A stretch of DNA of 64,000 nt from Dehalococcoidales bacterium (GCA_050014355.1 JBEKDL010000006.1:1543-65542); one strand, 5' to 3'; shown: positions 21,898 through 46,325, counted from the stretch's first letter. Program-made: numbers and translations. The notes: a model not told the origin generated them from the letters alone.

Positions 21898-21910
21898 CGC
21901 TTATCACCCC

Positions 21911-24679: not shown

Positions 24680-27600
24680 TGTGGTTTTCCCCCTCGTGCA
24701 ATTATTTCACCTAGGTCATAGTTCACACTGGTAACACCAAAGTCAGGTTCTCGTCCGAAGGGATAACGGATATAGACTGGTTCATGGACTGACTTTCCAT
24801 CAACTAGGACAACAGCTAGGATGAATTCCTCGGGTTTGTTGAGACCTGTCAATATCTCATTCTTAGTCACTGTCACTGTCGTTGCTCGATAGTCGCGCCC
24901 TTTAACTTCGATGAAGAGCAATCGGCCACTGTCTCGGAACCCGGATTCAATATCATATCCAACCTTCTCCGCGGATACATCGACAGGTCGACGGTCTAGC
25001 AACCGCTCAATTTCCAGGACCTTACGCATTGCAAGTTGCTCAATGCGCTTAGTTTCCCGAGACTCTTCATCTCCTACACCAACCTTCTGACCGCGCAAAC
25101 GCTGCAATAAGCCTTCTGGCACAACGAGGGCGCCACCGATTATCACTGGGGGCACTGGATAAACATGTCGCTCTAACTCTAACTCATCCAGGCGCTTTTT
25201 AAGCCGAGCCTCTAATTCGTCAGCACGCTGGCGAGCTTTGCCTGAGTTAATTTTGGCATTGACCTTACCAGCTAACTCCTGCATTTTTAATTCATTGGCC
25301 CGGTAGTCCCAATAGTTAATCTCCTTAGTAAGACGGTCCTTCACTGCCGCTACGGTGTGGTCAACGACTTCCTCGCGCCGTCGGCGTACCTCCTCTAGGT
25401 GCCGTGGCACCACGCGCTCGATGGCGTACTGCATAATTTTGGACTCGAAATCTCCTTTGAGCCAAGCATCAGACAGTATGGGCAGTATGGATTCACGCTC
25501 CTCAGGACCTATCGAGCGATAGTCCAAATAGGGAGCATACCCAGCTGCACGAGTGTCGCCATTGCGGTCCACCTCAACGAATTGCATCTGCTGCGATACG
25601 ATCCGTTTTCGCCCATCAGGAAGCGTTCTGGCATCCTGCAATGAGTGCTCTAGGTAAAATAGTAAACGCGGATTGTCCGAAATATCAGTGGGGTCAACCA
25701 GAATAGCCCCCTCTTTCAGCAAATTGCGATACTTTTCCAGCATGAGATCAATTACAACATCCAGTAGCGGGTGTCCCGGACAGACAAGCTCTGCCAAGGG
25801 CTTACCTCGAATGGTTATTTGGTCCTTTTCGAAGCATACACGCTCATACTTCGCCATGAGTGGTTCACCGACACCCAACAATCGATCACGGCTTCGCATG
25901 ACTTGCGGTACATGCGTTACTTCATATCTTTTAGGTTCGCGTTCCCTTGCTGTCCCTCCAAAATGAGCAAAGGCTTCAAGAAAGAAAGCTCGTATAAAAT
26001 GCGGCTGAAGTTTTCGAGCGTCGGCTCTTTCCATATCTTCACGAATTCGCTGCACTTTGGCTGTATCCAGAGAGTCGTGTGCCAAAGCCCGATCTTCAAG
26101 GAGTTGTCGTAAATGGTCTCGGTCGAGCTCAGCGTCTACTACCTTGTTGTGCCTGCTCCTGACCTCCGGCTGGTCCCCGTAGCGGATTGCTTCAAGCAGA
26201 AGCTTACGCAGCTCATCACCCTCGAAAACGCGACCAAGAATGTCGAAGACTCCTCCGCCAAGCGCTTTTCGTTCTTCTTCGAGCTTTGTCAGAAGCCTGT
26301 GATATACCTCGCCTTCGCGTGTCTTGTATGCCACGAGACTCCACATGTGGCATACCTCTTCTTGGCCGATGCGATGAATACGTCCAAACCGCTGCTCAAG
26401 ACGATTTGGGTTCCAAGGCAGGTCGTAGTTGACCATTAGATGTGCCCTCTGGAGATTAATTCCTTCACCAGCGGCATCTGTGGCGACCAGCACAAAGACA
26501 TCTTTATTCTGAAGAAATGCTTCCTGGGTCTTGCGCCTGTCTTCACGACCCATGCTGCCATGAATGGTCACCACCGCCTCATGGCGCCCGACAAGGCCGC
26601 GGATCTTCTCCACTAGGTAATCCACAGTATCTCGGTGTTCACTGAAGATGATTAATTTTCTGATATTGCCACTAACATCAACTATTTCATGATTATTCTG
26701 GAGAAGATTGGAGAGTTGCTCCCATTTTTTATCTTTCCCTGAACGGCGTACAGTTGCTGCAAGTAGTTCAAGGGACTTCAAGGTCTCTATTTCTTTTTCT
26801 AGTTCAGCTACATTACGGGAGGCTGAAGCTTGTTCAACGATTTTATCTTCAAGGGACTCCAGTTCGCCGCTCGGGCGGTCATCCATCTCGTCCAGATCAT
26901 CTTCATCTAGGATGGGAAGGTCTTTGGGATCCTCTATTCGTGTCTGAAGCCCGTGCTTCATTATACGTTCCTCATTAAGGCGTTTTTCGAGTCTTTCACG
27001 TCGGCGTCTCAGCGACTCGTGTATGGCGGCAGGTGATGAAGCCAGACGACGTTGCAATGAGGTGAGGGCGAAGCCAACTCTATTGCCCCGACGGCCTTCA
27101 CCTTCAGCCATGAGACGGTCTACTCGGTTCATTTCCTCTTGGACGTAGGCTGTAACTCGGTTGTAAAGGTCATTCTCTTCATTTGAAAGCTCATAAGTCA
27201 CTGTATAAGCCCAACGTTCCGGGAATAGAGGAGTACCGTCAAACTTCACTAGCTGCTCTTTAACTAATCGACGCATAACATCTGAAGTATCGGCAATGTG
27301 TATGCCGTCGCGGAATTTTCCTTCGAATCTATCACTATCGAGGAGAGCCATAAAAAGCTGGAAGTCTTCCTCCTTACCATTATGAGGCGTGGCAGTAAGT
27401 AACAATAGATGCCTTGTTCGGTCAGGCGCTCCAAGCAGTTGTCCGAGCTTGTAGCGTTTGGTCTCCTTAATGTCGCTGCCAAAAAAGTGTGCTGACATTT
27501 TGTGTGCTTCGTCTACAATCACGAGGTCCCATTCTGTCTGACGGAGCTTCGCTTGAATGCTTTCATTCCGACTCATGTGGTCCAGCCGGCTTATTACCAA

Positions 27601-28200
27601 GTTGGCTTCATTGTAGGGATTGCCACTCTTTGAGTCCTCGATCGTCTGGTTAGAAATTATCTTAAAATCAAGACCGAATCGGCGCCACATTTCGTCTTGC
27701 CATTGGTCAACTAAGTTCCCAGGGCAGCAAATAAGACATCGGCGGACATCACCGCGGATAGCTAATTCCTTTATGAAAAGACCCGCCATAATAGTTTTTC
27801 CAGCTCCAGGGTCATCGGCTAGAAGAAAGCGCAATGGTTGTCTAGGAAGCATCGTTTCATAAACAGCGGTTATCTGATGAGGTAGAGGGTCAACAACAGA
27901 AGTATGCACGGCCAGAACCGGGTCAAAAAGATGTGCTAAGCGAATACGGTACGCTTCCGAAACTAGACGAAAAATGCCACCTTCGACGTCAAAGCTCCAT
28001 ACCCGAGTAGCTTCGATAGTCTCTAAAGATGCTTCGCGGTCGCGAAACATCAGTTGATTGCCAAGGTTTCCAGAAGAGTCTTTGTAAGTTAACTCCACTA
28101 CGTTTGGGCCGTGCCACTGTGCGCTGACTACAGTTACCGGTCCACTAGGCGTAACTCCTTTTACGAGGGTACCTTGCTTCAAGTCTTCTAGTCGAGCCAT
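24676..28200 (-). CDS. SNF2-family helicase with C-terminal DUF3883 (PD-(D/E)XK-like) domain
   Basis: 1174 aa. DDPGAGKT, VIVDEAHK, LLLTATPHNG, FGRIHRIGQ. C-terminal GYDIESGF...LLFIEVKG. ATGA overlap with the methylase gene. Confidence 0.9.
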   Translation of the reverse strand: MARLEDLKQGTLVKGVTPSGPVTVVSAQWHGPNVVELTYKDSSGNLGNQLMFRDREASLETIEATRVWSFDVEGGIFRLVSEAYRIRLAHLFDPVLAVHTSVVDPLPHQITAVYETMLPRQPLRFLLADDPGAGKTIMAGLFIKELAIRGDVRRCLICCPGNLVDQWQDEMWRRFGLDFKIISNQTIEDSKSGNPYNEANLVISRLDHMSRNESIQAKLRQTEWDLVIVDEAHKMSAHFFGSDIKETKRYKLGQLLGAPDRTRHLLLLTATPHNGKEEDFQLFMALLDSDRFEGKFRDGIHIADTSDVMRRLVKEQLVKFDGTPLFPERWAYTVTYELSNEENDLYNRVTAYVQEEMNRVDRLMAEGEGRRGNRVGFALTSLQRRLASSPAAIHESLRRRRERLEKRLNEERIMKHGLQTRIEDPKDLPILDEDDLDEMDDRPSGELESLEDKIVEQASASRNVAELEKEIETLKSLELLAATVRRSGKDKKWEQLSNLLQNNHEIVDVSGNIRKLIIFSEHRDTVDYLVEKIRGLVGRHEAVVTIHGSMGREDRRKTQEAFLQNKDVFVLVATDAAGEGINLQRAHLMVNYDLPWNPNRLEQRFGRIHRIGQEEVCHMWSLVAYKTREGEVYHRLLTKLEEERKALGGGVFDILGRVFEGDELRKLLLEAIRYGDQPEVRSRHNKVVDAELDRDHLRQLLEDRALAHDSLDTAKVQRIREDMERADARKLQPHFIRAFFLEAFAHFGGTAREREPKRYEVTHVPQVMRSRDRLLGVGEPLMAKYERVCFEKDQITIRGKPLAELVCPGHPLLDVVIDLMLEKYRNLLKEGAILVDPTDISDNPRLLFYLEHSLQDARTLPDGRKRIVSQQMQFVEVDRNGDTRAAGYAPYLDYRSIGPEERESILPILSDAWLKGDFESKIMQYAIERVVPRHLEEVRRRREEVVDHTVAAVKDRLTKEINYWDYRANELKMQELAGKVNAKINSGKARQRADELEARLKKRLDELELERHVYPVPPVIIGGALVVPEGLLQRLRGQKVGVGDEESRETKRIEQLAMRKVLEIERLLDRRPVDVSAEKVGYDIESGFRDSGRLLFIEVKGRDYRATTVTVTKNEILTGLNKPEEFILAVVLVDGKSVHEPVYIRYPFGREPDFGVTSVNYDLGEIIARGGKPQ

Positions 28201-28212
28201 TCTGTACCTCCT

Positions 28213-28446
28213 TTAACGCCTATCGACAGCATTATCTACGGGAAATGCCTTCGAAGATGGCCTACCTCTGCGCCCTTTATATCCTCTCGCAAATGAGTGA
28301 AGTGTATCGCTTCGGATGAGCCAAGTGTTATGGATCTTTTTCGCCACTAATCTACTTTCTCTACATAATCTTTTCACCGTTCCGGGATGAACCCCTAGTA
28401 CCTGGGCAGCCTCAACCACACTCAAGTAATCATCTAATATAGGCAT
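28213..28446 (-). CDS. excisionase-family (MerR-type) helix-turn-helix protein
   Basis: 77 aa. LSVVEAAQVLGVHPGTVKRLCRESRLVAKKIHNTWLIRSDTL. Ends 12 nt upstream of the helicase start. Confidence 0.75.
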   Translation of the reverse strand: MPILDDYLSVVEAAQVLGVHPGTVKRLCRESRLVAKKIHNTWLIRSDTLHSFARGYKGRRGRPSSKAFPVDNAVDRR

Positions 28447-28866
28447 TAAATATCCTTCTAGACCAATATTATTCCGATGTCGTTATATTATTCCCCTAGG
28501 CTCTGGGAAAGTCAAGGTTCATCTCTTTGGTTCGGATAAACAAACTATCTGGTTGAAGGTCAATGCCAGACAAATGATAAAGATGGCTGGCAATAAACCT
28601 ACAGCACCGGAATCGGCAGCCTAAGAAAGAAAAGGAGAAAAGAGAACCAGAAAAGAGACCCCCCTACCTCCTCTAAAGACGAATATATATACAGAGGAAG
28701 AGAAAGAGAAACGCTGTGACGTATGTTATAGATTAGCTAACAAATAGCTAACAGACTGGATTACATGGGTTATCACAATTTAGTACTCCACGCTCAGAAA
28801 CGGCTGCTTGCACCAGACAAATTTGTACTTATTTGAGCTTAACAGCATCACATGATACAATGAGAC

Positions 28867-28916
28867 ACAGTTTCGTAAACCGCTTGTCGTAGGTTCGATT
28901 CCTATCGCTGGCTCCA
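28867..28916 (+). repeat. att-like direct repeat copy 1: tRNA 3' segment (positions 27-76, anticodon CGU)
   Basis: ACAGT-TTCGTAA-ACCGC-TTGTC-GTAGG-TTCGATT-CCTAT-CGCTGGC-T-CCA. Identical to 36695-36744. Weaker similarity extends back to about 28848. Confidence 0.7.
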
Positions 28917-29002
28917 GTTCTTGAAGCTAAAATCCACTGAAATGGCGAGAGCGTTTTGGCGGATTTTTTATTTTTGCTAATCTTTTGCTAATCTATGTGA
29001 AT

Positions 29003-29413
29003 TTAGGGACAGTTTAAAGATGCTGACAATGTGTAGCCAATATTACCTAAATATTCGGCATGTACGTTTAATTTGTTATTTCCCGGCGTTTTATAAGGTA
29101 AATAAAAAGTAACTAAAGCTTCTTGATTAACGTTGAGTGAAAAAGGCTGAGTTTCTTGAGATACTAATATTCTACCGTCATCAGAACGAATATCAGCAAA
29201 TGTTTTTATGTTATCCACTTGAGTTGAGCCGATATTTTTTATATACGCCCTAATTCTATAGACACGACCGGCTCTGAAGTCATCGATCGTATAGGTAATA
29301 GCAGGAAGAGGGTTTAAAGGAACGATAAAAAAATCATTTGGGTCATATATATTTGGAATATGACCAATTGCTAGGTCAACATTTGGAATCACAGCGGCGA
29401 AGTGAGAGAACAA
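29003..29413 (-). CDS. hypothetical Ig-like (CARDB-like?) protein, probably 5'-truncated
   Basis: 136 aa, AT-rich, no signal peptide. Beta-rich YIKNIGSTQVDNI...NKLNVHAEY. Its 5' end collides with the recombinase remnant. Confidence 0.35.
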   Translation of the reverse strand: MFSHFAAVIPNVDLAIGHIPNIYDPNDFFIVPLNPLPAITYTIDDFRAGRVYRIRAYIKNIGSTQVDNIKTFADIRSDDGRILVSQETQPFSLNVNQEALVTFYLPYKTPGNNKLNVHAEYLGNIGYTLSASLNCP

Positions 29414-29547
29414 AGGCGGGGTTAGAACGGTTCCGGGCTATCGGTAAGAAGTTGGGGCGGCCCCCCGGCAGTAAGGACAAAAGGCGCCGGCAAAAAAGGG
29501 TCGCTCGGATTCACGAACGATACTTCACGCCTACCGGCATTTATTGA
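29389..29547 (+). pseudogene. serine recombinase (resolvase/invertase) C-terminal remnant
   Basis: SERTKAGLERFRAIGKKLGRPPGSKDK matches the resolvase linker/HTH entry. The catalytic N-terminal domain is absent. Confidence 0.6.
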
Positions 29548-30029
29548 AAAAGGAACCTTTTTATTCCCTATTGACCATCCGCTAAATTGTTACTTTCGGC
29601 AGTGCCCGCACAACGCGCTGGGTATGCCCCCAAAAAAGATGGGAGTGCAAAAATTCAGAAAGTATCGGACTCTACGGGGGCAAAAAGAAGGAGTCCAGTT
29701 GAGACCAATGGCGGAAGTTTGTAAACCAGAAATTAAGCTTCTTGACATCGTTAGTCTGGCAGGAGTAAAGTTATCATGTTTTAATGCACGGTTCGGGTTA
29801 TCCGGTACGGTACTTCACAGAGGAGGATAAACGGTCTCACAATTCGGATTTGCGATAATGCGGTGGGACACCGTTTTGTCGCTTCCGTCTCGATCCTCAG
29901 CGGAGAACAGGATGATGACCCTTGGTTGAGATCAATTGTGGTACATTCTTCTAGAGGCGAGACTATTGCACTGCAAACGAAAAGAGCGGTATAGGTTACT
30001 CGTTTCCTATATGATTAACGGAGCCGCTG

Positions 30030-30761
30030 GTGGACGGTAAATCCTTCAATTTATCACTGGTGCTACCCTTCTACAATGAGGAGGAGAATATCAGAGACGT
30101 GGTTAATGGGCTGTCAGTTGCTTGTGAGAAGGCCCATATTGCCTACGAGTTAGTGCTGGTGAATAATGGCTCGGTGGATGACTCTGCCTCGATATTAGGT
30201 GACTTAGCCAAAGAAAAACCTGATAGAATAAGAGTTATCAACATTCCCTCTAATCAGGGCTATGGGTGGGGAATCATTAACGGATTCAATAATGCTTCTG
30301 GTGAGTATGTAGGATTTATGTCCGGCGATGGTCAGACAAGCCCCGAAGATATGTTAAGGGTATTCCACGGCATGTCGGAGAACTTTGATATAGTCAAGGC
30401 GAAAAGAACTGTACGGAACGATGGAATAGCCCGTAAGATTTTATCCAAAGTCTGTAACTTCCTGTTCCTGGCATTATTCAACGTGAATACGTCAGATGTG
30501 AACGGTAGCCCGAAGATTCTTAAGAACGAACTGCTACGCAAGATTGCTCCCACATCCAAGGACTGGTTCATCGATGCTGAAATAGTTATCAAGGCCATGT
30601 ATCTGAATCTTAAGCTCAAGGAGGTACCTGTGGAGTTCTTACGCCGAGAAAAAGGGAGGTCCCACGTGAAGTTCTCCACGATTTTTGAGTTTGCGAAGAA
30701 TATGTGGAATTATAGATTCGGCAGAGGATTTGAAGAATGGAAACAAGCGATTCAAAAGTAG
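30030..30761 (+). CDS. family 2 glycosyltransferase (polyprenyl-phosphate sugar synthase, GtrB/ArnC-like)
   Basis: LSLVLPFYNEEENI...ELVLVNNGSVDDS...GDGQ. 243 aa, GTG start. Confidence 0.85.
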   Translation: MDGKSFNLSLVLPFYNEEENIRDVVNGLSVACEKAHIAYELVLVNNGSVDDSASILGDLAKEKPDRIRVINIPSNQGYGWGIINGFNNASGEYVGFMSGDGQTSPEDMLRVFHGMSENFDIVKAKRTVRNDGIARKILSKVCNFLFLALFNVNTSDVNGSPKILKNELLRKIAPTSKDWFIDAEIVIKAMYLNLKLKEVPVEFLRREKGRSHVKFSTIFEFAKNMWNYRFGRGFEEWKQAIQK

Positions 30762-31534
30762 TGATCCTTTGTGGCGGAAGAGGGGTCAGGTTTCATGAAG
30801 CGACAGAGCTTAGACCTAAGCCTCTCATAGAGATAGGGGGAAGACCCATACTCTGGCACATAATGAAGACTTATGGCTATTATGGGCACCAAGACTTCAT
30901 ACTATGCTTGGGCTACAGAGGCGAGATGATAAAAAGACATTTTCTTGATTACGAGCTTATGAATTGTGACTTTACGGTCCAGTTGGGTCGAAAGAAGAAG
31001 ATTGAGCTCCACAACACATGTCAGGAACAGGGATGGAAGGTTACCTTAGCCGAGACCGGCATAAATGCTATGACTGGCGCTCGGATCAAACGCATCGAAA
31101 AGTATGTTGATTCTGACTTGTTTCTACTGACTTATGGGGATGCTGTCACCAATCTTAATATTTCTAACCTGGTTGATTTTCATCACTCCCATAAGAAAAT
31201 TGGGACAATCACTGCGGTGAGCTCTCTATCAAGATTTGGTGACCTCAAGATAGGTCGAGGCAATTTGGTTGAAGAGTTTAGGGAAAAGGCTCCCATCCAT
31301 GGTAGCTACATCAACGGAGGTTTCTTTGTCTTTGACCGAAGATTATTTGACTATGTGGACGATGATGATAGTTGTAGTTTCGAGCGGCAACCATTGGAAC
31401 GACTTGCGAAGGACGGGCAACTAGCTGCTTACGTTCACGACGGTTACTGGCAGTGCATGGATACTTACCGTGATTGGGAAATCCTTGAGCAAGCTTGGAA
31501 TACCAACAATCCACCGTGGAAAGTCTGGGGATGA
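30737..31534 (+). CDS. rfbF: glucose-1-phosphate cytidylyltransferase
   Basis: [37 protein letters not shown], 265 aa. Confidence 0.9.
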
Positions 31535-32529
31535 GCACGATGAAGGATTTTTGGCGAGACCGGAAGGTGTTCATCACCGGTTGTACGGGACTGCTTGGGT
31601 CTTGGTTGACCCAGACCCTGGTGGAGAGAAACGCCGAGGTTGTCGGACTGGTTCGAGACCTAGTCCCTAAGTCCAATCTCAATTGGAGCGGATTTAGCGA
31701 CAAAATTAATATCGTTCGCGGCGAACTGGAGGATTATCCCACCCTGGAGCGAGCACTCAACGAGTATGAAATAGACACCGTTTTTCACCTGGGTGCCCAA
31801 ACAATCGTCGGCATCGCCAACAGGAACCCTCTAAGCACCTTCGAATCTAACATAAGAGGGACGTGGAATTTACTGGAAGCCTGCCGGCGAACCAGCACTA
31901 TCTCAAGGGTTTTGGTTGCCTCTAGCGATAAAGCGTATGGTGAACATGAAGAACTCCCCTATAATGAGACGTTTGCTCTTAAAGGCAGTCACCCCTATGA
32001 CGTTTCCAAAAGCTGTGTGGACCTAATCTCCACTGCCTACTATAAGACCTATGGTTTGCCAATCGGCATTGCGAGGTGTGGTAATTTCTATGGAGGCGGT
32101 GACCTGAATTTCAATCGTATCATCCCCGGGACGATAAGAGCCGTATTTAATAACGAGAGGCCTGTAATTCGTAGCGATGGGACTTTCATTCGCGATTATA
32201 TTTTCGTATTGGATGCGGTGGAGGCATACTCACTACTGGCTGAACGCATGGACAACAAGAACATACATGGCGAGGCCTTCAATTTTAGTAATGAAATGCG
32301 AATGACTGTTATCGAGATTGTGCAAAAGATATTGCGGTTAATGAACCGGGAAGACCTAGAACCGACGATATTAAACACGGTGAAGGGTGAGATAAAGCAT
32401 CAATATCTCACTACTCAAAAAGCCGGGATGATTTTGGGCTGGAAACCCAAGTACGAACTAGAAGAAGGTCTCTTGGAGACTATCAAGTGGTACCAAGAGT
32501 TTTTTGAGGGGCAGAACAAGACTAGATGA
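31531..32529 (+). CDS. rfbG: CDP-glucose 4,6-dehydratase
   Basis: [25 protein letters not shown] catalytic pair. ATGA overlap with rfbF, so the start is taken at 31531. Confidence 0.9.
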
Positions 32530-33524
32530 TTGCAGCACTAAACAATACAGTGGTGTTTGTTACGGGAGTTTCCGGTTTCATCGGCTCACACCTAGCCCGA
32601 AGGCTGGTTGCGGAGGGGGCCAAAGTGCATGGGCTGGTTAGAAAGAGCTCTAACTTATGGCGAATCCAAGACTTTAGAGACCAGATTGAATTTCACTATG
32701 CTGACCTAAGAGATTTTGAATCAGTGAAAAAAGCAGTTCAAGATATCAGCCCACAGAAAATATTCCATCTCTCTGCGTACGTCGATGTTGATCGCTCCCC
32801 GGCGCTCATGGCGGAAATGGTCGAAGTTAACGTCAAAGGAACTCTAAATTTGTTACAGGCTCTGGGTGGAATTCCTTACGACTGTTTCGTAAACACAGGA
32901 GCTTCTGAGGAATATGGAGACAACCCAGTTCCATTTCGAGAAAGCCAAATGCCAAATCCAGTCTCTCCCTATTCAGCATCAAAGGTGGCTACCACTATGT
33001 TTTGCCAGATGCTTCATAAGACGCAAGGATTACCGATTGTTACTTTGAGACCTTTCTTGACCTACGGTCCAAGACAGGAGAGCCGCATGCTCATTCCCTC
33101 GCTAATTCAGCAGACGCTTCGCAGTGAGGCCTTTGAAATGACCGGGGGAGAACAGACCAGAGAATTCAACTATATCGATGATATCGTCGACGGTTTTGTG
33201 CGGGCTTCCGTTACCCCCGGAGCTATTGGCGAAATAATAAACATTGGGAATGGCTTGGAGCATAAAGTCAAGGATGTGGTAGAGGCAGTTTTGAGCCTGA
33301 TGAACAGTTCCGTAAAACCGAAGATAGGAGCTTTAAATTATCGCCCCGGGGAAGCCTGGCATTTTTACTGTGACAATACCAAAGCGAGGCGAATTCTGGG
33401 CTGGGAACCCAGGGTCAATTTAGGCGATGGCCTAAAAAAGACCATCGATTGGTACCGGGAATACTATCTGAAGAATAATCAGGATGTAGCCAAAATGGGA
33501 GAGCGGAGTGCCCACCACGGTTAG
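32526..33524 (+). CDS. NAD-dependent sugar epimerase/dehydratase (SDR extended family)
   Basis: [23 protein letters not shown] overlap with rfbG. Confidence 0.85.
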
Positions 33525-33544
33525 TTTATCTCGTCGGAACTGCA

Positions 33545-34210
33545 ATGACTTATGATTTTTCGGCTCACAGTAAGGAATACGAGAGGACTATCGGTAAGTC
33601 TCACAAGTACTTCATCCAGGTTAAATGCAGCGAGTTGCTGAAGATGCTGGCAAGATATGGGCTTACTCCCGAGAGAGTCTTGGATCTAGGCTGCGGCACG
33701 GGAGAAGCAGAGCAGATTTTATGCAAATACTTTGGTAACATTACTGGCATCGACCTGTCGGAAGGCATGATTAGTGAGGCAAAAAAGAAGGGTTTGGTAA
33801 ATTGCGAATTCCGACAGGCAAATGCGACAAAGCTTCCATTTACAGGCGAGCATTTTGACCTGGTCTTTTCGTTTTCATTATTTCATCATATAGCGAAAAA
33901 CCAATTGGAGCAGTCAATAAACGAGGCGGTAAGAGTAACCAGAAAATCGGCAATTATACTGGTCTTTGAGCATAACCCCCGAAATCCAATAACTAAACTC
34001 GTGGTGGAGAGGTCGCCGATTGACAAGGGTATTATATTGTTAAATGCCAGTAGTATAGAAGAATTGTACCGAAAATCTAATGTAGAAATACTGGAAAAGA
34101 GATATATCGTTTTCTTGCCCAGGTTAATGTCCTTTTTACGTCCGTTGGAAGGCCTGCTACACAAAGTACCTTATGGTGGTCAATATTGCGTTGCGGGGCG
34201 GGTCACTTGA
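33545..34210 (+). CDS. class I SAM-dependent methyltransferase
   Basis: VLDLGCGTGEA motif I. 221 aa. Confidence 0.8.
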   Translation: MTYDFSAHSKEYERTIGKSHKYFIQVKCSELLKMLARYGLTPERVLDLGCGTGEAEQILCKYFGNITGIDLSEGMISEAKKKGLVNCEFRQANATKLPFTGEHFDLVFSFSLFHHIAKNQLEQSINEAVRVTRKSAIILVFEHNPRNPITKLVVERSPIDKGIILLNASSIEELYRKSNVEILEKRYIVFLPRLMSFLRPLEGLLHKVPYGGQYCVAGRVT

Positions 34211-34248
34211 GTAAGCAGAGAGTTAACCCCAGGTTACAGAGGAGTAAC

Positions 34249-34623
34249 ATGTTTGGTCTAATATTAGTGTCCATCTGTATCGTTTGTGCCGTGGTGGGGC
34301 AAATTGCCATGAAGAGTGGCATGGGTGATATTGGCGAGATAAGCAATATGAGACAGTTGCTGAATTCTCATACCCTTTTCCTTATCTTCACAAACATCCG
34401 CATTCTGATAGGCTTACTGTTCTATGCGGTGTCGGCTGTGTTATGGTTAGCCGCCTTATCGACGCTGAATGTCAGCTTTATGTACCCCTTATTGAGTCTG
34501 GCTTACGTAGTGACAGCAATATTGGCGTTTGTTTTCCTAAAGGAAAAGATAACTCCATTCGGCTGGCTGGGAATTATCCTTGTGGTAGGTGGCTGCTTCC
34601 TGATACTCAAGGCAGGCCGTTAG
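34249..34623 (+). CDS. small EamA/SMR-like membrane protein (ArnE/F-like flippase subunit candidate)
   Basis: 124 aa from the ATG after GAGGAG. Four predicted TM helices. GQIAMKSGM...LKEKITPFGWLGIILVVGG. Confidence 0.65.
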   Translation: MFGLILVSICIVCAVVGQIAMKSGMGDIGEISNMRQLLNSHTLFLIFTNIRILIGLLFYAVSAVLWLAALSTLNVSFMYPLLSLAYVVTAILAFVFLKEKITPFGWLGIILVVGGCFLILKAGR

Positions 34624-34805
34624 TATGCCAAATGTTAGTAGGGGGCCGTGTTTTGTTAAACGCGTGACTATCTCAGGTACCTGATTTTTCTGCGAATCTC
34701 AGGTGCTTAGAAGTAAGAACAGGTACAATTATTGGGGCGGGTCACTGGGGCAGGCGTTGTCCTGATTTGCTTGGGGTTATTCTGGGTACTGCGAAGTTAA
34801 TAAAT

Positions 34806-36296
34806 ATGAGGCTGCCAAAAATCCTTATCAAAATCAGAACTAAGGAAGTTCTGGTTTTCTCTCTCATCATTTTACTCGCCATTGGTATTAGAGTCGGAAT
34901 TACCTATAATACCCTCGGCGTCCCCGAGTATTCCGGAATGGCGGTTGATATAGGCGAGGCTGCCAGGAACCTGGCAGAGGGTAGAGGTTACGTTGTTGAC
35001 TCCGCTTATATGGGCGCAATCAGCAGGTTACAGGCGGAAAAGAACATGCTGGTCGACCTTCAGGACGTGCCACCTCCGGTTGTTGAGGTTTTTTCACCCT
35101 ATTATGCGCTTCCGCCAGGACCCAGCGCTTTACTGGCTTTAACTTACAAAGTATTCGGGGAATACAGGTATATCTACTTCCGATTACTAGAAGCTATTAT
35201 TTCCTCATTTGGTTGCCTATTCATATTCCTGTTAGGCAAGGAACTATTTAATCGTAACATCGGGTTATTCGCTGCCTTGGTATATGCTGTTTACCTGCCT
35301 TTGGCCTATATTTCTACCTGGGCCCTCCATGACGCCCTGATACCATTTATAACGCTACTAGCAGTATACCTCTTCATCCTTGGGGCAAAAAGAAAAGCCT
35401 TAAAGTTCTACATCCTGGCCGGACTTACTACTGGCATTGGATGCTATTTCCAGCCAACTGTTGTGCTCCTGCCGCTCAGCTTTGGCCTGGGCCTTTTTAT
35501 ATATCGCCTGGGCGAGTCAAATCTCAGAAAGAATATCACCCATGTGATCATGACGAGCGCTGTCATGATGGTGGTGGTGGTACTGGTTGTATCCCCCTGG
35601 GTGGCGAGAAATTACCACATTACCGGCAAGATTATGCTGATGCGTCCCAGTACGTGGCAGGCTGTCTGGGAAGGCTTCGGTGAGTTTGAAAATCCCGTAG
35701 GGGCGGTGCTTAATGATGAAGTAACCTACGAGCAGGTAAAAGATGAGCTGGGCTATAATATCCCCTACGGTACGCCGGAATATGACGCGGTTCTACGAGG
35801 AAAATCGATAAAGGCTATCGAGGAACACCCTTTTTGGTGGCTAAGTATTCTGGCCCGCAGAGCGCCGCATACTATAGTCTACGGGAGTGAATTGGGGATA
35901 GCCCATTACCCGCGTGATACTCATGGAAATATCCTCTGGGGTGAAACACAGGCTCAGGCTGATAGCCATTCGCGTTTCATCATTGCGATAAAAAGCGCTA
36001 ATTTCGGGGAAGCATGGGAAATATTAAGAACACACCCTTACGCTATTTTCTCATCGGGGATGACCCTGTTGTTCGCTTTTTTGCCGTTATTGCTCAGTAT
36101 CATCGGCATATGGCTGATGAGGCGGGAATGGAGAGCTATCGTCCTGGTAGCAACAGTGCTGTTTTATTTCTCGGTAGTAAATATTCTTTTCTTCGTTAAC
36201 TGGAAGACCTTGGTGCCGGGCGCATTGGCCTATGTCCTTTTCAGCGCTATCACGCTACATTACGTCGTGTTAAGGTTGAAAATTGTTCACGAATAG
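34806..36296 (+). CDS. polytopic GT39/ArnT-like glycosyltransferase
   Basis: About 496 aa with more than 10 TM helices. A large membrane GT-C-like protein in context with the GT2 and the flippase-like gene. Confidence 0.7.
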   Translation: MRLPKILIKIRTKEVLVFSLIILLAIGIRVGITYNTLGVPEYSGMAVDIGEAARNLAEGRGYVVDSAYMGAISRLQAEKNMLVDLQDVPPPVVEVFSPYYALPPGPSALLALTYKVFGEYRYIYFRLLEAIISSFGCLFIFLLGKELFNRNIGLFAALVYAVYLPLAYISTWALHDALIPFITLLAVYLFILGAKRKALKFYILAGLTTGIGCYFQPTVVLLPLSFGLGLFIYRLGESNLRKNITHVIMTSAVMMVVVVLVVSPWVARNYHITGKIMLMRPSTWQAVWEGFGEFENPVGAVLNDEVTYEQVKDELGYNIPYGTPEYDAVLRGKSIKAIEEHPFWWLSILARRAPHTIVYGSELGIAHYPRDTHGNILWGETQAQADSHSRFIIAIKSANFGEAWEILRTHPYAIFSSGMTLLFAFLPLLLSIIGIWLMRREWRAIVLVATVLFYFSVVNILFFVNWKTLVPGALAYVLFSAITLHYVVLRLKIVHE

Positions 36297-36608
36297 CTAA
36301 CGGACTGAGTAATAGCTGGCAGCAACTGGTAACTTTTGACGCACAAATTAAGAATTTCGTGGGTGGTGGGATGACACATTTTCGAAGCTAAAAACACTCC
36401 ATAGCACATAGTCTTACAGACTTTTAATCAGATCAGCTTGGTGCAAAGGCAAATACTGCCTGAAAAACCAAACCTTTGGTTCTATCTGTGGAACCCATCG
36501 GCTCATTACACAGGGGCCGAACTTGCTTAACCATGACCGCAGCTATCCAGTGGAAGGAATCCAGCTAATAAATAGCTAACGGGCGGAATGCGACTAGATA
36601 TTACAGGA

Positions 36609-36744
36609 TGGCATTGCACGAACAAATAAGGTTTTTGGCCTACGACGTAAGGGGTCTAGTTGGAACGGGACAACATCATGTGGTACAATGGCGAACAGTT
36701 TCGTAAACCGCTTGTCGTAGGTTCGATTCCTATCGCTGGCTCCA
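36609..36744 (+). repeat. att-like direct repeat copy 2 (extended ~136 nt; 50-nt tRNA-type core at 36695-36744)
   Basis: Core identical to copy 1. The upstream ~86 nt are homologous, with substitutions and a 6-nt indel, to 38489-38567. Confidence 0.7.
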
Positions 36745-36870
36745 TTTTTTAGGGGTCACCGGTCGCTATTGTCCCAGTAATTTAAAGACTTTTAAGAGAA
36801 ATGTTGGCTTTAGCAATCAACTTGTATTACGAAAAGTAATTGAGTGGCTATAAAGTGCTTTATTATCATT

Positions 36871-38082
36871 CTAATCAGTGTCCAGAGCTTCCGTGATGTA
36901 AAAAGAGTTTGCACTTAAACCGGTACAGGAGGGATCGGTGGTGCTGGTCACTCTAATTTGGTAATTGTCTCCTAACATCTGATAAGGGGATATTGTCCAT
37001 AAATAGAAGCCAGTGCCACCCGAACCTATCGATATCATTGAAGCAATAGGGCGTTGAAAAACGCCGTCCTTGTAAAGATCAATTTTAACGTATGGGCCAG
37101 GATTACTGTTATACATCCAGGTGATAGCGTATTGACTCTCTCTTGCCCAGCCCTCACCACTGGGCGAAGTGACGATGATAGGTGGCCCTTTGATTCTGAA
37201 ATTGCCTTCACTGGTAGCGGTACAGGTGGTATTGCTGGTACTGGTTATTTTGATCTGGTATTTGTCTCCTGGAATCTGAGTAGATGGTATTGTCCATACA
37301 TAGCAACGGCCGCTACCATCTGAACCTGCCGGTGTCTGTGTAGTGATAGTCTGGTAATAAGCTCCGCCTTTAAGGAGCTCAATTTTAACATACGGACCTG
37401 GGTTGCCACTACATGCCCAGTCAATTTCCTGCCATTGTCCTGCCGTATAACTTTCACCATCTTTGGGTGAACTAACGGTAATAGGGGCTTTCAGGATACT
37501 AAAAGTGTTTTTACTTGAACCGGTAAAGGCGGAATCTGTGGTGCTGGTAACTCTAATCTGGAAATTGTTTCCGGAAATTTCAGAGGAGGGTATTGTCCAA
37601 TTATAGAGACCACTGCCGCCTGTGCCTGTGGGTGCCTTTTGGGTGATAGTCTGGTAAAAAGCCCCGTCCTTAAGAAGTTCAATTTTAACATAGGTTCCCG
37701 GGTTGCCAGTATATGTCCATTTGATAGCCTGCTGACTCCCCGCTGTCCAGGTTTCTCCACCGGAGGGAGAAGCAACAATGAAAGTGGATTCCGGGCTGTT
37801 GAAAGGATAGAGGTTACCATCAGGAAAACTCCCGATCCCGTTACCTGTGCCATAAAACCTGTAAAACCATGAAAGTACGTCAGGGCTTAAAGCGAGGCCG
37901 TTGTCCCGTGAGGCGGCATACATGGTGTTGTTATCGCTGGTGATGGAAGTAGACTGAATTTGTGTGCTGGGAGAGCTGGCTGCCTGCGTTTTTGCGGGCA
38001 TTGTCAATGGGAGCGCGACAATTAAAAATAATAAAAATCCCAGAACCGCCAATCGGGAAAGTAATTTCAACATCTCAGCCAT
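36871..38082 (-). CDS. secreted protein with three tandem Ig-like repeats (Kre9/KNH-type, tentative)
   Basis: Signal/anchor LLSRLAVLGFLLFLIVALPLTMPAKTQA. Three ~95-aa repeats with GNPGxYVKIELLKxG...YxWTIP...YQIRVTSTT. Confidence 0.75.
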   Translation of the reverse strand: MAEMLKLLSRLAVLGFLLFLIVALPLTMPAKTQAASSPSTQIQSTSITSDNNTMYAASRDNGLALSPDVLSWFYRFYGTGNGIGSFPDGNLYPFNSPESTFIVASPSGGETWTAGSQQAIKWTYTGNPGTYVKIELLKDGAFYQTITQKAPTGTGGSGLYNWTIPSSEISGNNFQIRVTSTTDSAFTGSSKNTFSILKAPITVSSPKDGESYTAGQWQEIDWACSGNPGPYVKIELLKGGAYYQTITTQTPAGSDGSGRCYVWTIPSTQIPGDKYQIKITSTSNTTCTATSEGNFRIKGPPIIVTSPSGEGWARESQYAITWMYNSNPGPYVKIDLYKDGVFQRPIASMISIGSGGTGFYLWTISPYQMLGDNYQIRVTSTTDPSCTGLSANSFYITEALDTD

Positions 38083-38488
38083 CCCTTCATCCGTATTATC
38101 AATTTTTTTATTTTCGGTTTAAATGTCTTCTCCTAACCGCATATTAAAGATATAATTTACTGTGGCAGATAAAACCGGCTCATAAAATAGAGAAATCCCC
38201 AATTCTGATTATTATAATTATTAGACTATTTATAGTTATATTACTGTATTATTTCAGTTAGATTTTGGAGAGAAATTAACTCAGTTCGGCTCTTATTTTC
38301 AAAATTGTTACATTATTTGATCCATCTATTTTAGCTACGTGTTTATTAAATTCATAATAAGAGGTTCCTATGGTGTTCTTATAATCTGCTCCCCGAAAAC
38401 CAGCGCATACATTGACCTGACTCGCTAGGCGGAACTGAAGGTTGCCTTGAAAGAACAGACATGAGATTATATCTACGGAACCCATAGG

Positions 38489-38617
38489 GCATCTCACGAA
38501 CAAATGAGATTTTTGACCGGAGACGCGAGGGGTCTAATTGGAACGGGACAACATCATGTGGTACAAACAGATTCGTAAGCCGCTTGTTGTAGGTTCGATT
38601 CCTATCGCTGGCTCCAG
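38489..38617 (+). repeat. att-like direct repeat copy 3 (diverged; core 38568-38617)
   Basis: The core differs from copies 1 and 2 at 3 of 50 positions (tRNA positions 31, 39, 48). It ends 3 nt before the MFS stop codon. Confidence 0.65.
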
Positions 38618-38620
38618 TTT

Positions 38621-39895
38621 TCAAAGCCGGAATTCAGCCTGCTGGTGCGCTTTTTTATATTCTTCCAGGTTCAGGTGCCAGATATCCGGCGCAAAAATCC
38701 TTATCGCCAGTACCAGCGCAACACAGGAAGCGCCCATTATCGTCACCGCCATCGGGCCCCCCAGATAGTTCCCCAGAGCGCCCGCCAGCAGGCTTCCCAG
38801 GGGCATAAGAGCCCGGTTCAGCAGGTAGATACCTAGGATCCTTCCCCTTAAACGCGCGGGCGCCAGCGTCTGGATGATGGTCTGGTCCTGGGTAGTGTAG
38901 CTGCTGTTGCTCACCCCGATTATCAGGATAAATATCGTCGCTAGCCACAACATATGCGAATGCCCGAATAATATCAGTGAGACTCCGAAGCCGGCCGCCC
39001 CCACTATCATCAATTTTCCGCTGCCCTGGAGCCGCCCTATCGAAGCTATCGTCAATGCCCCGAGCACAGCGCCGACGCCTACCATCGCCATGAGTAAGCC
39101 CTGCGTGGCGGAACCGCCTTTAAAAACTTGAGTCGCGAAACCCGGCATGAGAGTGATGAAAGGCATGCCCAGCACCATCGGTGCCAGGCCCAGCACCATC
39201 AACGCCAGGATGAGTTTATTAGACATTACATAGGCGAAGCCTTCGCGGGTACTGGATAAAAACGATTGCTCTTCGGCCGCAAACGAGGCGGCGGCCTGCT
39301 TGGTCTCGGGCACCTTTATCTGTACCGTCCAGACTGTTGCGATAATGTACATGAAGGCCTGGACATAATAGGAAAAGTCAGCGCCCATAATGTTAAGGAG
39401 TCCGCTTACCGCCGGACCGATGCTACGGCTTAAGTTAAGCGCCGCGGAGTTCAGAGAAATGGCGTTGAGGAGGTATTTTTCCCCCACGAGGTCGTTAATC
39501 AGCACCTGGCGGGCCGGCTGCTGAAACGCCTGCACCGTACCGGCGAGGAAACCGGTGACATAGACGTGCCACGGCTGGACTTGATGGGTGAGGACGAGGG
39601 TGGCCAAGGCCACGTTCAATATCGCGTTGACCACCTGGGCGATAATAAGCTGGGCCTTGCGCCCGTAGCGGTCCGCAACCACGCCGGCTATTGAGCCGAA
39701 AAGGAGCAAAGGTATTCCCCGTACCGCACTGACGAAACCCAGCTGCAAGTATGACCCGGTAAGGGTAAAGATGAGCCAGGTACGCGTGACCTGGTCCATC
39801 CATAGCCCCATCGAGGTGGTTAGCTGTCCTGCCCAGAGCAGGCGGTAATCTCTAAGGCGGAGAGATTCAAAGGTGCGTAAGTTCCGGATACGCAT
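38621..39895 (-). CDS. MFS transporter
   Basis: 424 aa, about 12 TM helices. N-terminus FRLLWAGQLTTSMGLWM and VADRYGRK loop typical of MFS_1/EntS-like exporters. Confidence 0.85.
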   Translation of the reverse strand: MRIRNLRTFESLRLRDYRLLWAGQLTTSMGLWMDQVTRTWLIFTLTGSYLQLGFVSAVRGIPLLLFGSIAGVVADRYGRKAQLIIAQVVNAILNVALATLVLTHQVQPWHVYVTGFLAGTVQAFQQPARQVLINDLVGEKYLLNAISLNSAALNLSRSIGPAVSGLLNIMGADFSYYVQAFMYIIATVWTVQIKVPETKQAAASFAAEEQSFLSSTREGFAYVMSNKLILALMVLGLAPMVLGMPFITLMPGFATQVFKGGSATQGLLMAMVGVGAVLGALTIASIGRLQGSGKLMIVGAAGFGVSLILFGHSHMLWLATIFILIIGVSNSSYTTQDQTIIQTLAPARLRGRILGIYLLNRALMPLGSLLAGALGNYLGGPMAVTIMGASCVALVLAIRIFAPDIWHLNLEEYKKAHQQAEFRL

Positions 39896-40070
39896 TAGAT
39901 GTTTCTGGTTTTCACTCTTTCCTTGAAAATGCTCACACGGAGAAAGCCGTTTTATCGGCCAAAGGACTATTTTATCTTAGATTTGTTGGACCTGTCAAAC
40001 GAAAGCGTATTGAGAAAAAGAGACGCCCCCGTGAAATGCCGGGGGCGACGTTAGTGTTCCGATTTGTGCT

Positions 40071-40873
40071 CTATTTGTCTGATTTGAAGTTGTCCGGCCG
40101 GCCTCTTACCTTGCCCCAGTCGGGTGTTCTTTTATCGAGGAAAGCCTGCATGGACTCCCGCATTTCCGGCCCGCCAAAATAGGTGGGATTAATCAGGGTG
40201 GGGAAGTAGTCTATCGTGTGGTGGGGCATCATTTCCAGCTCTTCATCTTTTCGACTTCTTCATCAACTTTGTCCAACGGCACTACCGCGTTGACCAGGCC
40301 CCAGGCGAGCGCCTGCTGGGCGGTATAGCGCCGACAGAGCATCCACATTTCCCTGGCCCTCTTCTGGCCGATAATCCGGGACAGGTAAGCTACATCCGTG
40401 CCGCTGGCCGGGCTGCCCACCCGCGGGCCCACCTGGCCGAAGATGGCATTGTCCGCGGCGATGGTTAAATCGCAGTGATAAGCGTAATGGTGCCCGGCGC
40501 CGATGGCGTATCCTTTCACCACCGCGATGATGGGTTTCAGGGCCAGTCTCATGTTGAGATGGACATCCGTCATCTGGGTAAAAGAGTTGGGCTTTTTCTC
40601 GGCGCCTTCCTCGCGCAGGTCGCCGCCGGCGCAGAAAGATTTATCACCGGCGCCCGTGAGAATAATGCAACCGATGCTATCATCGAGCCGCGATTCCCTG
40701 AAGCAGGCGCACATTTCGCTCATCCCGCGGGGGCTGATGAAATTAAGCCCCTTGGGATTGGTGTTGGCCATGGTTATCCGGGAAACGCCGCCCATTTTAT
40801 AGTACTTTTTCTCGTAAATGGTCTGGTCAGTGCAATATCCGTCTACTTTGGTCCACTCTTTGTTCCAAGCCAT
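40071..40873 (-). pseudogene. enoyl-CoA hydratase/isomerase family (MenB-like), interrupted by a frameshift
   Basis: The 214-aa ORF (40229-40873) has ILTGAGDKSFCAGGD and stops at ...EKMKSWK*. The adjacent frame (40071-40232) encodes the missing C-terminus ...PEMRESMQAFLDKRTPDW. Confidence 0.7.
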
Positions 40874-40942
40874 CGTTTATAATCCTCCTGTTTAGTTTGG
40901 TTTTACTGATATTTAGTTGTTTTAACCTGCGCGAATGGCGCT

Positions 40943-41734
40943 TTACCCGACTACGCTGTAGCCGCCGCTGACGCTCAAAATCTGGCCGGTGATAAAACTG
41001 GCGGCGCTCGAAGCGAGGAAAGCCACCGCGTTGCCAATGTCCTGCGGCGTGCCGACTCGGCCGAGGGGATACATTCGCATAAGTTCTTTTTGTGCCTCCG
41101 GCGTGGAGGCCGGGCCCTGTACACCATAGTGCATGCTCATCTCCCCGATGTCTTCCGGTTTGGGGGGAGTGGCGCCGGGACTGACAACGTTCACTCTGAT
41201 ACCGAAACGGCCGTTCTCGCGGGCCAGGGTCTTGCTTAATGAGTTAATGGCACCCTTGCACCCGGAGTAGACCGATTCCCTCGGGCCGCCGACGCGCGAG
41301 GAATCCGAGCTGATGCTAACGATAGCCCCGGATTTCTGGTTAATCATGGGGCGCAGTACCGCCTTACAACAGTTCATCATGCCGACGTAATTTATTTTGA
41401 TAATTTTATCCCAGAGCTCGGGCGTGGTATCGACAAAGAAGGCGAAGGCGTCCCACCCGGCGTTGTTGACCAGGATGTCCACTTTCTGGTACTGGTCGAT
41501 TATTTTTTTCACCATAGCTTCCACTTCGTCCAGTTTGGTGATATCAACTTTCATCGGTATCGCTTTGCCCCCGGCCACTTTAATATCCCCGGCGGTCTTA
41601 ATGGCCTGCTTCTCGTCAAGGTCGGCAATGATGACGATAGCGCCCTCGGCAGCCAGAGTGATAGAAATGCCCCGACCGATATTGGAGGCGCCCCCGGTGA
41701 CTATCGCCGTTTTGCCCTTGAGACCTAAGTCCAT
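40943..41734 (-). CDS. SDR family oxidoreductase
   Basis: TGGASNIGRG, NNAG, YSGCK catalytic motif. Confidence 0.9.
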   Translation of the reverse strand: MDLGLKGKTAIVTGGASNIGRGISITLAAEGAIVIIADLDEKQAIKTAGDIKVAGGKAIPMKVDITKLDEVEAMVKKIIDQYQKVDILVNNAGWDAFAFFVDTTPELWDKIIKINYVGMMNCCKAVLRPMINQKSGAIVSISSDSSRVGGPRESVYSGCKGAINSLSKTLARENGRFGIRVNVVSPGATPPKPEDIGEMSMHYGVQGPASTPEAQKELMRMYPLGRVGTPQDIGNAVAFLASSAASFITGQILSVSGGYSVVG

Positions 41735-41910
41735 AGGTTTCCTCCTTCTATTTAGAACATCACTTTTTTACCCATAAAATCATACCTTAACCGCTATCAT
41801 CTTGTCAATTTGAGCAAGTATAACCTATAATGTAACAAACATGGGTCGGAAAGCCTGGGATTATGTTGCCAGGGAGTCAGGTTTGATATACAGGAAAGGA
41901 GTGTGTCGCT

Positions 41911-42960: not shown

Positions 42961-43037
42961 AAACTTTAAAGAAATGATTAACCGGATAAATACAAAACGG
43001 CCCATCCTGACGAACAGATGCCGGAAAGAGGTAGGCG

Positions 43038-43379
43038 ATGGTAAAGTTTGCCAGAGTTAGAATGATATTGGGCAAAGATGTAAAAAAGGGAGACCAGGAG
43101 TCTTTGCAGACGCTGTTTCACTCCATGGAAAGGTACCGGCCTATCACGCTGCTGACGAGCGCCGCGGAAGATGCCAACCTTAGAGTCGTCCTGCAGGGAC
43201 TTGGCGCCACCGAACTGAAGTTGGGTGATGATATGCGAAAAGGACAGGTCAAGACCATTATGACGCTGTTCTGGTACGCGGAAAGAGCCAAACCGATTGA
43301 AATGAAACATAAGGCTAGAGCAGGGAAAATTATCCCCATTGACATGACGCTGGCTCCTGCCGCAAAGCCTGCCGCTTAA
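43038..43379 (+). CDS. hypothetical protein
   Basis: 113-aa ORF with no motifs. Confidence 0.4.
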   Translation: MVKFARVRMILGKDVKKGDQESLQTLFHSMERYRPITLLTSAAEDANLRVVLQGLGATELKLGDDMRKGQVKTIMTLFWYAERAKPIEMKHKARAGKIIPIDMTLAPAAKPAA

Positions 43380-43419
43380 GAACGCGCGCCAAGACCGCTG
43401 CGCTGCAGCTAAAAAATTT

Positions 43420-44619: not shown

Positions 44620-44848
44620 ATTGACCCCCTTATGATGATTTATTGAATCATTCATTGAACATGCGTAGTAGAATATTCAGGTTAATTATAATTTGTTTTA
44701 GATGGCGGCGCAATGACGTTACTGACCTGACAAAGGGTTGACATAAAACAAATAATGCAATTTGTGCACGGACGTTGAACCAGTATATAATTGAACAGTC
44801 AAGTCCAGGCAATGCGCTTTTAGTAAACACGAAACCAGGAGGATTTTT

Positions 44849-45664: not shown

Positions 45665-45670
45665 GATTGG

Positions 45671-46168: not shown

Positions 46169-46325
46169 GGTATTATTCTCCTTTTCGGTATTGCGATATA
46201 TCGTAACATATCTAAATAAATTTGTCAATGACCGGCGTTGTAATTTACCGGTCGAAAGTATAAAATAGAGTCATTCTATCTCGTCTGACCGTAAAAAATA
46301 CCCTGTAGTTCACCACCGGGGGTGA

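Follow-up and report, generated by a model that had tools for sequence, protein, structure and literature searches.

The window analyzed here, 64,000 nucleotides (nt) of DNA from a Dehalococcoidales bacterium (GCA_050014355.1, JBEKDL010000006.1:1543-65542), contains three direct copies of a 50-nt repeat. These repeats are displaced 3' fragments of one tRNA-Thr(CGU) gene, that is, partial copies rather than genes, and the DNA from position 1 to 38.6 kb of the window is accessory DNA inserted at the anticodon loop of that gene. The best explanation of the whole, which is considered very probable, is that each fragment was left by one site-specific integration into the anticodon loop. The window lies on contig C6 (66.6 kb) of a metagenome-assembled genome (MAG), designated G000, which comprises 2.13 Mb in 112 contigs with 94.8% completeness. 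The features are listed in Table 1.

Identity of the repeats

The 50-mer, ACAGTTTCGTAAACCGCTTGTCGTAGGTTCGATTCCTATCGCTGGCTCCA, occurs with no mismatches as copies 1 and 2 and with three mismatches as copy 3. It had no match in 100 shuffled windows. In the whole assembly, the 28-mer covering the T arm and acceptor end (up to 2 mismatches) matched only copies 1 to 3, all on the plus strand of C6. Intact tRNA-Thr(CGU) genes with this 3' sequence (up to 2 mismatches) are found at 11 loci in relatives, and copies 1 and 2 match the intact gene of the congener G002 at 47/47 positions, from G30 through position 76. In its first three bases (ACA), the 50-mer departs from the intact genes, in which positions 27 to 31 read GCGGT. 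Homologues of the sequence preceding the copies occur in other genera with 73 to 79% identity; they end in ACAG(A/T) and are directly followed by the 3' part of Met(CAU) and Lys(UUU) tRNAs, from the anticodon loop onward, indicating that ACAG is element sequence. The two apparent mispairs in the 27-31 stem strand are therefore due to the leading ACA being derived from the element and not from the tRNA.

ARAGORN detected no tRNA gene in the window, indicating that neither a 5' acceptor strand nor a D arm lies upstream of the copies. Rfam gave no relevant match at E <= 1 between 20 and 45 kb of the window, and the predicted folds of the fragments were no better than those of shuffled sequences (z of -0.65 to -1.6); by all three approaches, the fragments had neither a complete cloverleaf nor a match to a curated RNA family. 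The three substitutions of copy 3 break the 31-39 pair, which fits an oldest, nonfunctional copy, whereas copies 1 and 2 still match the functional sequence.

Most of what the initial annotation had claimed about the repeats was upheld. The identity of copies 1 and 2 was confirmed, as were the missing 5' acceptor strand and D arm, and the view of the repeats as partial, displaced copies agrees with the empty sites described below and with the 47/47 match to the 3' part of the G002 tRNA. The assignment of the 50-mer to the 3' part of tRNA-Thr(CGU) is supported by the 11 intact loci, but the span is positions 30 to 76 and not 27 to 76. The third copy does differ at three positions, but its proposed coordinates, 38568-38617, were one base too high, and the correct ones are 38567-38616. 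The alternative of a dispersed repeat was checked across the assembly, and the repeat was present at no other locus.

Native flanks and empty sites

The upstream flank of the relatives' tRNA-Thr(CGU) maps to a different contig of G000, C49, which carries GTCAGCGTAGCTCAGGGGTAGAGCAGCGGTTTCGTAA, corresponding to tRNA positions 1 to 38, followed by unrelated DNA. The 5' part on C49 ends in ...GGTTTCGTAA and the fragments on C6 begin with GTTTCGTAA. The 5' part stops precisely at the anticodon loop; the core common to both parts is therefore GTTTCGTAA, which consists of the anticodon loop and two stem bases. The crossover is thus located in the anticodon loop, the canonical class A sublocation.

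Two empty sites were found. On G001:C105, a C49-like flank (78 to 81% identity), an intact tRNA-Thr(CGU), and a major facilitator superfamily (MFS) transporter gene are contiguous within 5 kb. On the metagenome contig L082, an intact tRNA-Thr stands directly before the MFS gene. The target is uninterrupted at both, and the island is missing. When aligned to C6, the G001 site begins to match inside copy 3 and continues into the MFS gene, and the same holds for the metagenome contigs L078 and L082. Copy 3 is therefore the displaced native 3' end of the tRNA gene. The insertion separating the two gene halves is at least 857 + 40108 nt (at least 41 kb) long. The fragments all lie on the plus strand, and synteny with G001 gives the order C49 flank, tRNA 5' part (+), window (+).

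Comparison with four congeners gave the same boundary. The MFS gene, which in G001 is directly beside the tRNA, is 73 to 74% identical in G001 and G002, and window positions 38617 to 48000, including the genes just beyond the MFS gene, are 73 to 79% identical in all four. No DNA match was found in the four genomes for positions 9000 to 28866 or 36745 to 38566, and none for 28917 to 36694 beyond its first 77 nt. Positions 1 to 9000 matched only one gene located elsewhere in G003 (71%) and 50 nt in G001 (88%). The GC content is 0.43 to 0.48 at 28 to 39 kb versus 0.52 to 0.60 to the right (genome mean, 0.535), with a step at about 39 kb; it climbs from 0.44 to 0.55 at copy 3. G004 (L037, G004:C38:1-16630) has the same neighbors, but the segment carrying the tRNA and an ECH-to-CoA-transferase block is inverted compared with G000 and G001, and one end of this inversion is at the tRNA locus. 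Between the tRNA left arm and ECH, G004 has an AT-rich PIN_12 gene.

The empty-site comparison proposed in the initial annotation was thus informative: G001 and L082, together with presence and absence in the four congeners, bear out its suggestion of an accreted island array from position 1 to 38.6 kb. The intact tRNA that it expected to the left was not found in the assembly. The native 5' part (positions 1 to 38) is present on C49, fused to the left end of another element.

Conserved arms at the junctions

Every copy has a homologous right arm (RE) upstream. The additional homology of about 86 nt that had been noticed upstream of copies 2 and 3 was recovered as about 78 to 86 nt (133-nt alignment, 85.7% identity), and a three-way alignment revealed a weaker, more diverged version at copy 1. 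The sequence ATAGCTAAC is located exactly 123 nt upstream of the copy in both RE1 and RE2, where it is part of a GCTAAY x2 repeat; it occurs 4 times in the window versus 0.41 expected. A census of GCTAAY x2 found it in RE1, in RE2, and in LE', the left arm that follows copy 1.

LE' is 94% identical to the DNA following the tRNA-Thr copy in G004, a copy cut by the contig end, and its signature also follows an intact tRNA-Thr in G036 and an intact tRNA-Ser on contig C18 of G000. On contig C10 of G000, GCTAAC x2 follows an intact tRNA-Cys and precedes a convergent tyrosine integrase, whose first ~80 residues were removed by the terminus of an insertion sequence (IS). Wherever the integrase of a GCTAAY-arm element was seen, it adjoined the tRNA. 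Judging from these layouts, elements with GCTAAY arms regenerate the tRNA at their left end and leave a 3' fragment at their right end.

Elements of the opposite mode

The ~140 nt that follow the 5' part on C49 (G000:C49:14267-14409) form a left-end block that is conserved at 75 to 90% in at least 10 other genomes of the bacterial family. The block always follows position ~38 of a 5' tRNA half, those found being Met, Arg(UCU), Arg(CCU), Lys(CUU), Thr(CGU), Ser(UGA), Trp, and Leu(CAA). ARAGORN called none of the 5' halves followed by the block (C49, loci L041-L050, and G000:C25:8601-8746), and these halves are leftovers of elements that bring a replacement 5' half. On C25, a tRNA-Trp 5' half and the block are located at one end of an 11-kb prophage-like unit, a 394-amino-acid (aa) tyrosine integrase reads into an intact tRNA-Trp at the other end, and ACGCCAA x2 is present at both ends. 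This layout, verified end to end, indicates that block-type elements bring their own 5' half as a replacement. Two examples of this mode were seen at tRNA-Thr(CGU): G023 has a 421-aa integrase reading into the intact gene, with the remaining 5' half on a separate contig, and on L078 the order is an integrase end with ATATCGCCAAAATATCGCCAAA, the intact tRNA, and the MFS gene. Both modes of integration thus occur in G000 and its relatives.

The C49 block carries the matching GTCGCCAAAATGTCGCCAAAA, found nowhere else in the assembly, and TCGCCAA x2 is exclusive to C49. Because this arm motif differs from the GCTAAY x2 of RE1, the C49 element and E1, the unit to the left of copy 1, are different elements. 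The Thr integrase of G023 is 80% identical to the Trp integrase of C25 and 50% identical to the C10 integrase. The anticodon stem GCGGT/ACCGC is common to tRNA-Thr(CGU) and tRNA-Trp.

The position of the block after nucleotide 38 had raised the idea of an intron-split or Nanoarchaeum-like split tRNA. It was rejected since the anticodon loop is duplicated at both junctions, and the elements of C25, G023, and L078 are ordinary integrative ones, each supplying the 5' half that restores the gene. A resemblance of the left-end block to an inverted right arm was limited to a 10- to 16-nt motif (z <= 5 in a few pairs) and is not claimed.

The left arm on C49 is interrupted by a 115-nt repeat resembling a miniature inverted-repeat transposable element (MITE) and by an IS, where the contig ends. 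A group II intron or structured RNA was considered for this tail and dismissed: Rfam gave nothing, and the tail consists of the MITE-like repeat and the IS terminus. The MITE-like repeat (ACCCGAAGGGCAGGGTTCCACGGGC...CCCGTGGGTATC, ~115 nt) is located at G000:C49:14530-14649 and in at least nine other places (C4, C16, C37, C39, C62, C77, C91, C106, and C112); its copies are 100% identical, in most cases with AATAA and TA on the flanks. The copy at the start of C62 stands directly before part of a tRNA (variable loop, T arm, and acceptor end) not called by ARAGORN. The terminus of 117 to 120 nt beginning with GCAGGGTGTTGAAAAACGGGCG, always preceded by CTA, ends eight contigs (C49, C10, C12, C19, C23, C35, C52, and C66). 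It belongs to a multicopy IS that broke the assembly and that, on C10, removes the N terminus of the integrase adjacent to tRNA-Cys. Beside the left-end block at a tRNA-Ser 5' fragment, L046 (G078:C78) has a gene for a T2SSE-type secretion ATPase (1720-2829, minus strand), which hints that some block-type elements carry pilus or transfer genes.

Proposed integration history and alternative explanations

The attP of the elements that entered at C6 would consist of a right arm with GCTAAY repeats ending in ACAG, the anticodon loop, a copy of the tRNA 3' segment, and a left arm with TGAAGCTAAA, a hairpin, and GCTAAY x2. A tyrosine integrase, the enzyme suggested by the related elements, would exchange strands within the shared GTTTCGTAA core. 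The gene would be restored by the element-borne 3' segment and the old 3' segment moved to the far end of the element. According to this scheme, E3, next to the core genome, would be the oldest unit, followed by E2 and then E1, with the gene regenerated on the left each time, and the integrases of the C6 units would have decayed afterwards. Finally, an element of the opposite mode, with an integrase and a replacement 5' half at its right end, would have entered the loop of the regenerated gene and left the native 5' half (positions 1 to 38) on C49. The regenerated intact tRNA-Thr(CGU) would lie in the unassembled gap between C49 and C6. The predicted content of this gap is an integrase gene ending in TCGCCAAAAT(A/G)TCGCCAAA, the intact tRNA-Thr(CGU), and a left arm of the TGAAGCTAAA/GCTAAY type that joins the current beginning of C6.

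Several results weigh against this history. No intact tRNA-Thr(CGU) was found in the 112 contigs by ARAGORN or a regular-expression search, an absence from an incomplete assembly that is not proven for the organism; only the truncated 5' part (positions 1 to 38), on C49, was recovered. C49 is linked to C6 by synteny with G001 and not by reads, in a fragmented MAG. None of the units on C6 has an integrase: the 9 hits to PF00589 in the whole genome include none on C6 or C49, no resolvase hit was obtained on these two contigs, and Pfam scans of the open reading frames (ORFs) of E1 to E3 gave no integrase either. RE3 has no GCTAAY arm repeats, and E3 has neither the LE' signature or a left arm nor an integrase. 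The C10 integrase, which has lost its N terminus, is the only one associated with GCTAAY in the assembly. In the relatives, a second complete 3'-mode element with GCTAAY arms was not found on a single contig, and searches of the element interiors for a cognate integrase gave no match, the contigs being too short.

One alternative, considered improbable, is that a single element split the gene without restoring it. The C49 block and the right arm before copy 1 would be its two ends, its attP would share only the 9-nt loop core, and, with tRNA-Thr(CGU) inactive, ACG would be read by tRNA-Thr(UGU). The assembly fits this view in having the 5' half on C49, the 3' fragments on C6, and no intact gene, and ARAGORN detected both tRNA-Thr(UGU) and tRNA-Thr(GGU) in the genome. 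However, the verified elements share an arm motif at both ends, whereas C49 has TCGCCAAAA x2 and the arm before copy 1 has GCTAAC x2. In addition, all block-type left ends that could be followed have an integrase and an intact tRNA at the right end (C25 and G023), and on L078 the C49-type arm motif is beside an integrase and an intact tRNA-Thr.

It is very unlikely that the fragments are expressed as functional RNAs resembling tRNA halves. Such RNAs would start from TGnTACAAT promoter-like sites 5 to 6 nt upstream and terminate downstream, at the hairpin/T-run in the case of copy 1 and at the T-run in the case of copy 2. Promoter-like sites with an extended -10 are indeed present at 28833-28861 and 36660-36689, the -10-like motif also precedes fragments in G003 and G029, and copies 1 and 2 are perfectly conserved. 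This conservation is equally explained by recent integration, however, and the motif is missing where the homologous right arm occurs in other genera. No enrichment of promoter-like matches was seen (21 versus 18 +/- 5 in shuffled sequences), and in copy 3 the motif is lost and the substitutions are unpaired; the folds and the Rfam search, as reported above, gave no support. An outward promoter before each fragment was rejected for the same lack of conservation in other genera and of enrichment. Least likely of all is an assembly artifact, with strain alleles chained through the 50-mer, or a dispersed short repeat unrelated to integration: the MAG is fragmented with many repeat-induced breaks, but contig-end overlaps of ~120 nt mean that the assembly k-mer exceeded the 50-nt repeat and reads must therefore span each junction, the repeat is confined to this locus, the ortholog of copy 3 in the empty sites is the tRNA 3' end, and the genuine dispersed repeats of the genome look quite different.

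Units of the array and their cargo

Table 1. Coordinates of the units, repeat copies, arms, and flanking gene in the window
Feature	Position	Strand	Description
E1	1-28730 (unit to 28866 with RE1, at least)		Accessory DNA left of copy 1; left end beyond the contig
RE1, right arm of E1	28731-28866	+	Arm-type repeats ATTAGCTAACAAATAGCTAAC; core-proximal block ending in ACAG
Copy 1	28867-28916	+	ACA + 47 nt corresponding to tRNA-Thr(CGU) positions 30-76; displaced 3' fragment; attR of E1 and attL side of E2
LE', left arm of 3'-fragment-mode element	28917-29000	+	TGAAGCTAAA, hairpin + T-run (tRNA terminator), TTGCTAATC x2
E2 cargo	29001-36562	+	gtr-like glycan-modification module (Pfam)
RE2, right arm of E2	36563-36694	+	AGCTAATAAATAGCTAAC ... 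ACAG
Copy 2	36695-36744	+	Same sequence as copy 1; displaced 3' fragment
E3	36745-38487 (unit to 38566)	-	1.8-kb remnant with one gene
RE3, partial right arm	38488-38566	+	86% identical to RE2; 6-nt deletion before ACAG
Copy 3	38567-38616	+	Native 3' end of the tRNA gene, displaced; substitutions at positions 31, 39, and 47
MFS_3 transporter gene	38621-39895	-	Pfam; first core gene right of the array, native downstream flank of the tRNA

E1 contains, according to Pfam, nucleases, an OGG-like gene, AAA_5/VWA genes, Ku-LigD, and an Hma-type (BREX-related) defense operon, as well as an HTH_17 excisionase-like gene at 28213-28446(-). At a GC break inside E1, an arm-like repeat, ATAACGCCAATTAAACGC, is located at 13432-13450, and a tandem repeat of ~55 nt, with TTGAAGCTAAAGCGGG twice, at 13660-13790. 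These repeats may be an old internal junction of two elements within E1.

E2 is a 7.8-kb unit (28917-36694) with copy 1 and LE' on the left and RE2 and copy 2 on the right. Its genes are, in order, a truncated CARDB-like ORF (-), a family 2 glycosyltransferase (GT2), an NTP-transferase, two epimerase/dehydratases, a methyltransferase, an EamA-like small membrane protein, and a PMT_2 glycosyltransferase of the GT-C fold. A serine-recombinase remnant was considered at ~29.39 kb and discarded, as Pfam gives nothing there at E <= 0.1. The single gene of E3 (36871-38082) encodes a 403-aa Ig-like repeat protein (Pfam Kre9_KNH/Big_7).

Since no integrase is present on C6, the 7.8-kb and 1.8-kb units look like decayed, cis-mobilizable remnants. 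For E2, the gene content and ends are consistent with a remnant of this type: both attL and attR are kept, with identical 50-nt repeats, and the unit carries only glycosylation genes and no integration or transfer genes. E3 is a stump.

Other islands in this genome and its relatives

In G029, a canonical island at tRNA-Thr(CGU) consists of the tRNA, a convergent 436-aa integrase of a different kind, 23 kb of DNA, and a 3' fragment. In G026, a solitary right arm was found with no partner within 40 kb. Recombinases beside tRNA or tmRNA genes of G000 comprise 7 tyrosine-integrase and 2 serine-recombinase hits, on C10, C12, C17, C25, C39, C47, C64, C77, and C91. This load of islands in tRNA genes (tDNA islands) is heavy for a 2.1-Mb genome. 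The genome also has three tRNA-Arg(UCU) and two tRNA-Arg(CCG) genes.

Comparison with known systems

Tandem accretion at a tRNA hotspot is well known from textbooks and is the standard mechanism of tDNA islands. Anticodon-centered attP sites and tandem arrays in such islands were reportedly described by Williams in 2002. The array resembles the islands of the Islander collection in that the tRNA gene is split and regenerated by element sequence, a displaced fragment marks the island end, the crossover is in the anticodon loop, and the 3' fragments lie downstream in the same orientation. Among the 3919 islands of that collection, 3760 have 3' fragments and 159 have 5' fragments; it includes 2083 anticodon-centered sites and 4 tandem arrays of at least 3 members, each of which was required to have an integrase (Hudson, Lau & Williams 2015, PMC4383910). 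Unlike in those arrays, the C6 members have no integrase and the intact gene is not assembled. As Islander requires both, the locus in this assembly is called a decayed composite array and not three active islands. It differs also in combining 3'-mode and 5'-mode elements at one tRNA.

For streptococcal elements of the ICESt1/ICESt3 type, tandem accretion with cis-mobilizable elements (CIMEs) is described (Pavlovic 2004; Bellanger 2011), as outlined in the review PMC5704250. E2 is similar to CIMEs in having both arms and identical 50-nt repeats without an integrase. In contrast to the CIMEs of the ICESt1/ICESt3 type, no conjugation or mobilization genes were seen in E2, and the target is a tRNA anticodon loop, theirs being the 3' end of either a protein gene or tRNA-Lys.

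The islands at ssrA of Dehalococcoides are also arranged in tandem, downstream of one small RNA gene, and are delimited by direct repeats of its 3' end (McMurdie et al. 2011, PMC3146451). As in the array, a conserved nongene motif is located just upstream of the repeats, some members have no integration module, and the cargo is strain specific. The ssrA islands involve the serine recombinase DsiB, a 20-bp repeat, and the tmRNA T-loop, whereas here tyrosine integrases, a 47- to 50-nt repeat, and the tRNA anticodon loop are associated.

Glycan-modification modules of the gtrABC type are carried beside the att site of temperate phages. Judged from the Pfam domains of its genes, E2 is comparable in combining a GT2, a small membrane protein, and a polytopic GT-C inside an att-flanked unit. 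Unlike gtrABC modules, it adds a nucleotide-sugar pathway and has no phage genes.

Significance

The array places the edge of the core genome precisely at 38616/38617, with at least 41 kb of strain-specific DNA on the other side. The Hma defense operon, Ku-LigD, the glycan-modification module, and the Ig-repeat surface protein are therefore to be read as horizontally acquired cargo. The gap at tRNA-Thr(CGU) in the MAG stems from island-induced fragmentation and is not necessarily a real loss in the organism.

At least eight anticodons were found beside the left-end block, and integrases at Thr(CGU) and Trp(CCA) are 80% identical. On this basis, it is tentatively proposed that the family contains one clade of tyrosine integrases that use the 7-nt anticodon loop as the overlap region and can be retargeted freely among tRNA genes, related members (50% identity) carrying either the 5' or the 3' half of the target in attP. 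If true, tRNA-targeting integrases that are easily reprogrammed would exist as a natural family, and the tRNA-Thr locus would be a place where both modes collided. The conserved arm sequences can be used directly as probes to locate islands at many tRNA genes across this poorly characterized family, and they would also permit the study of tRNA target switching among closely related integrases.

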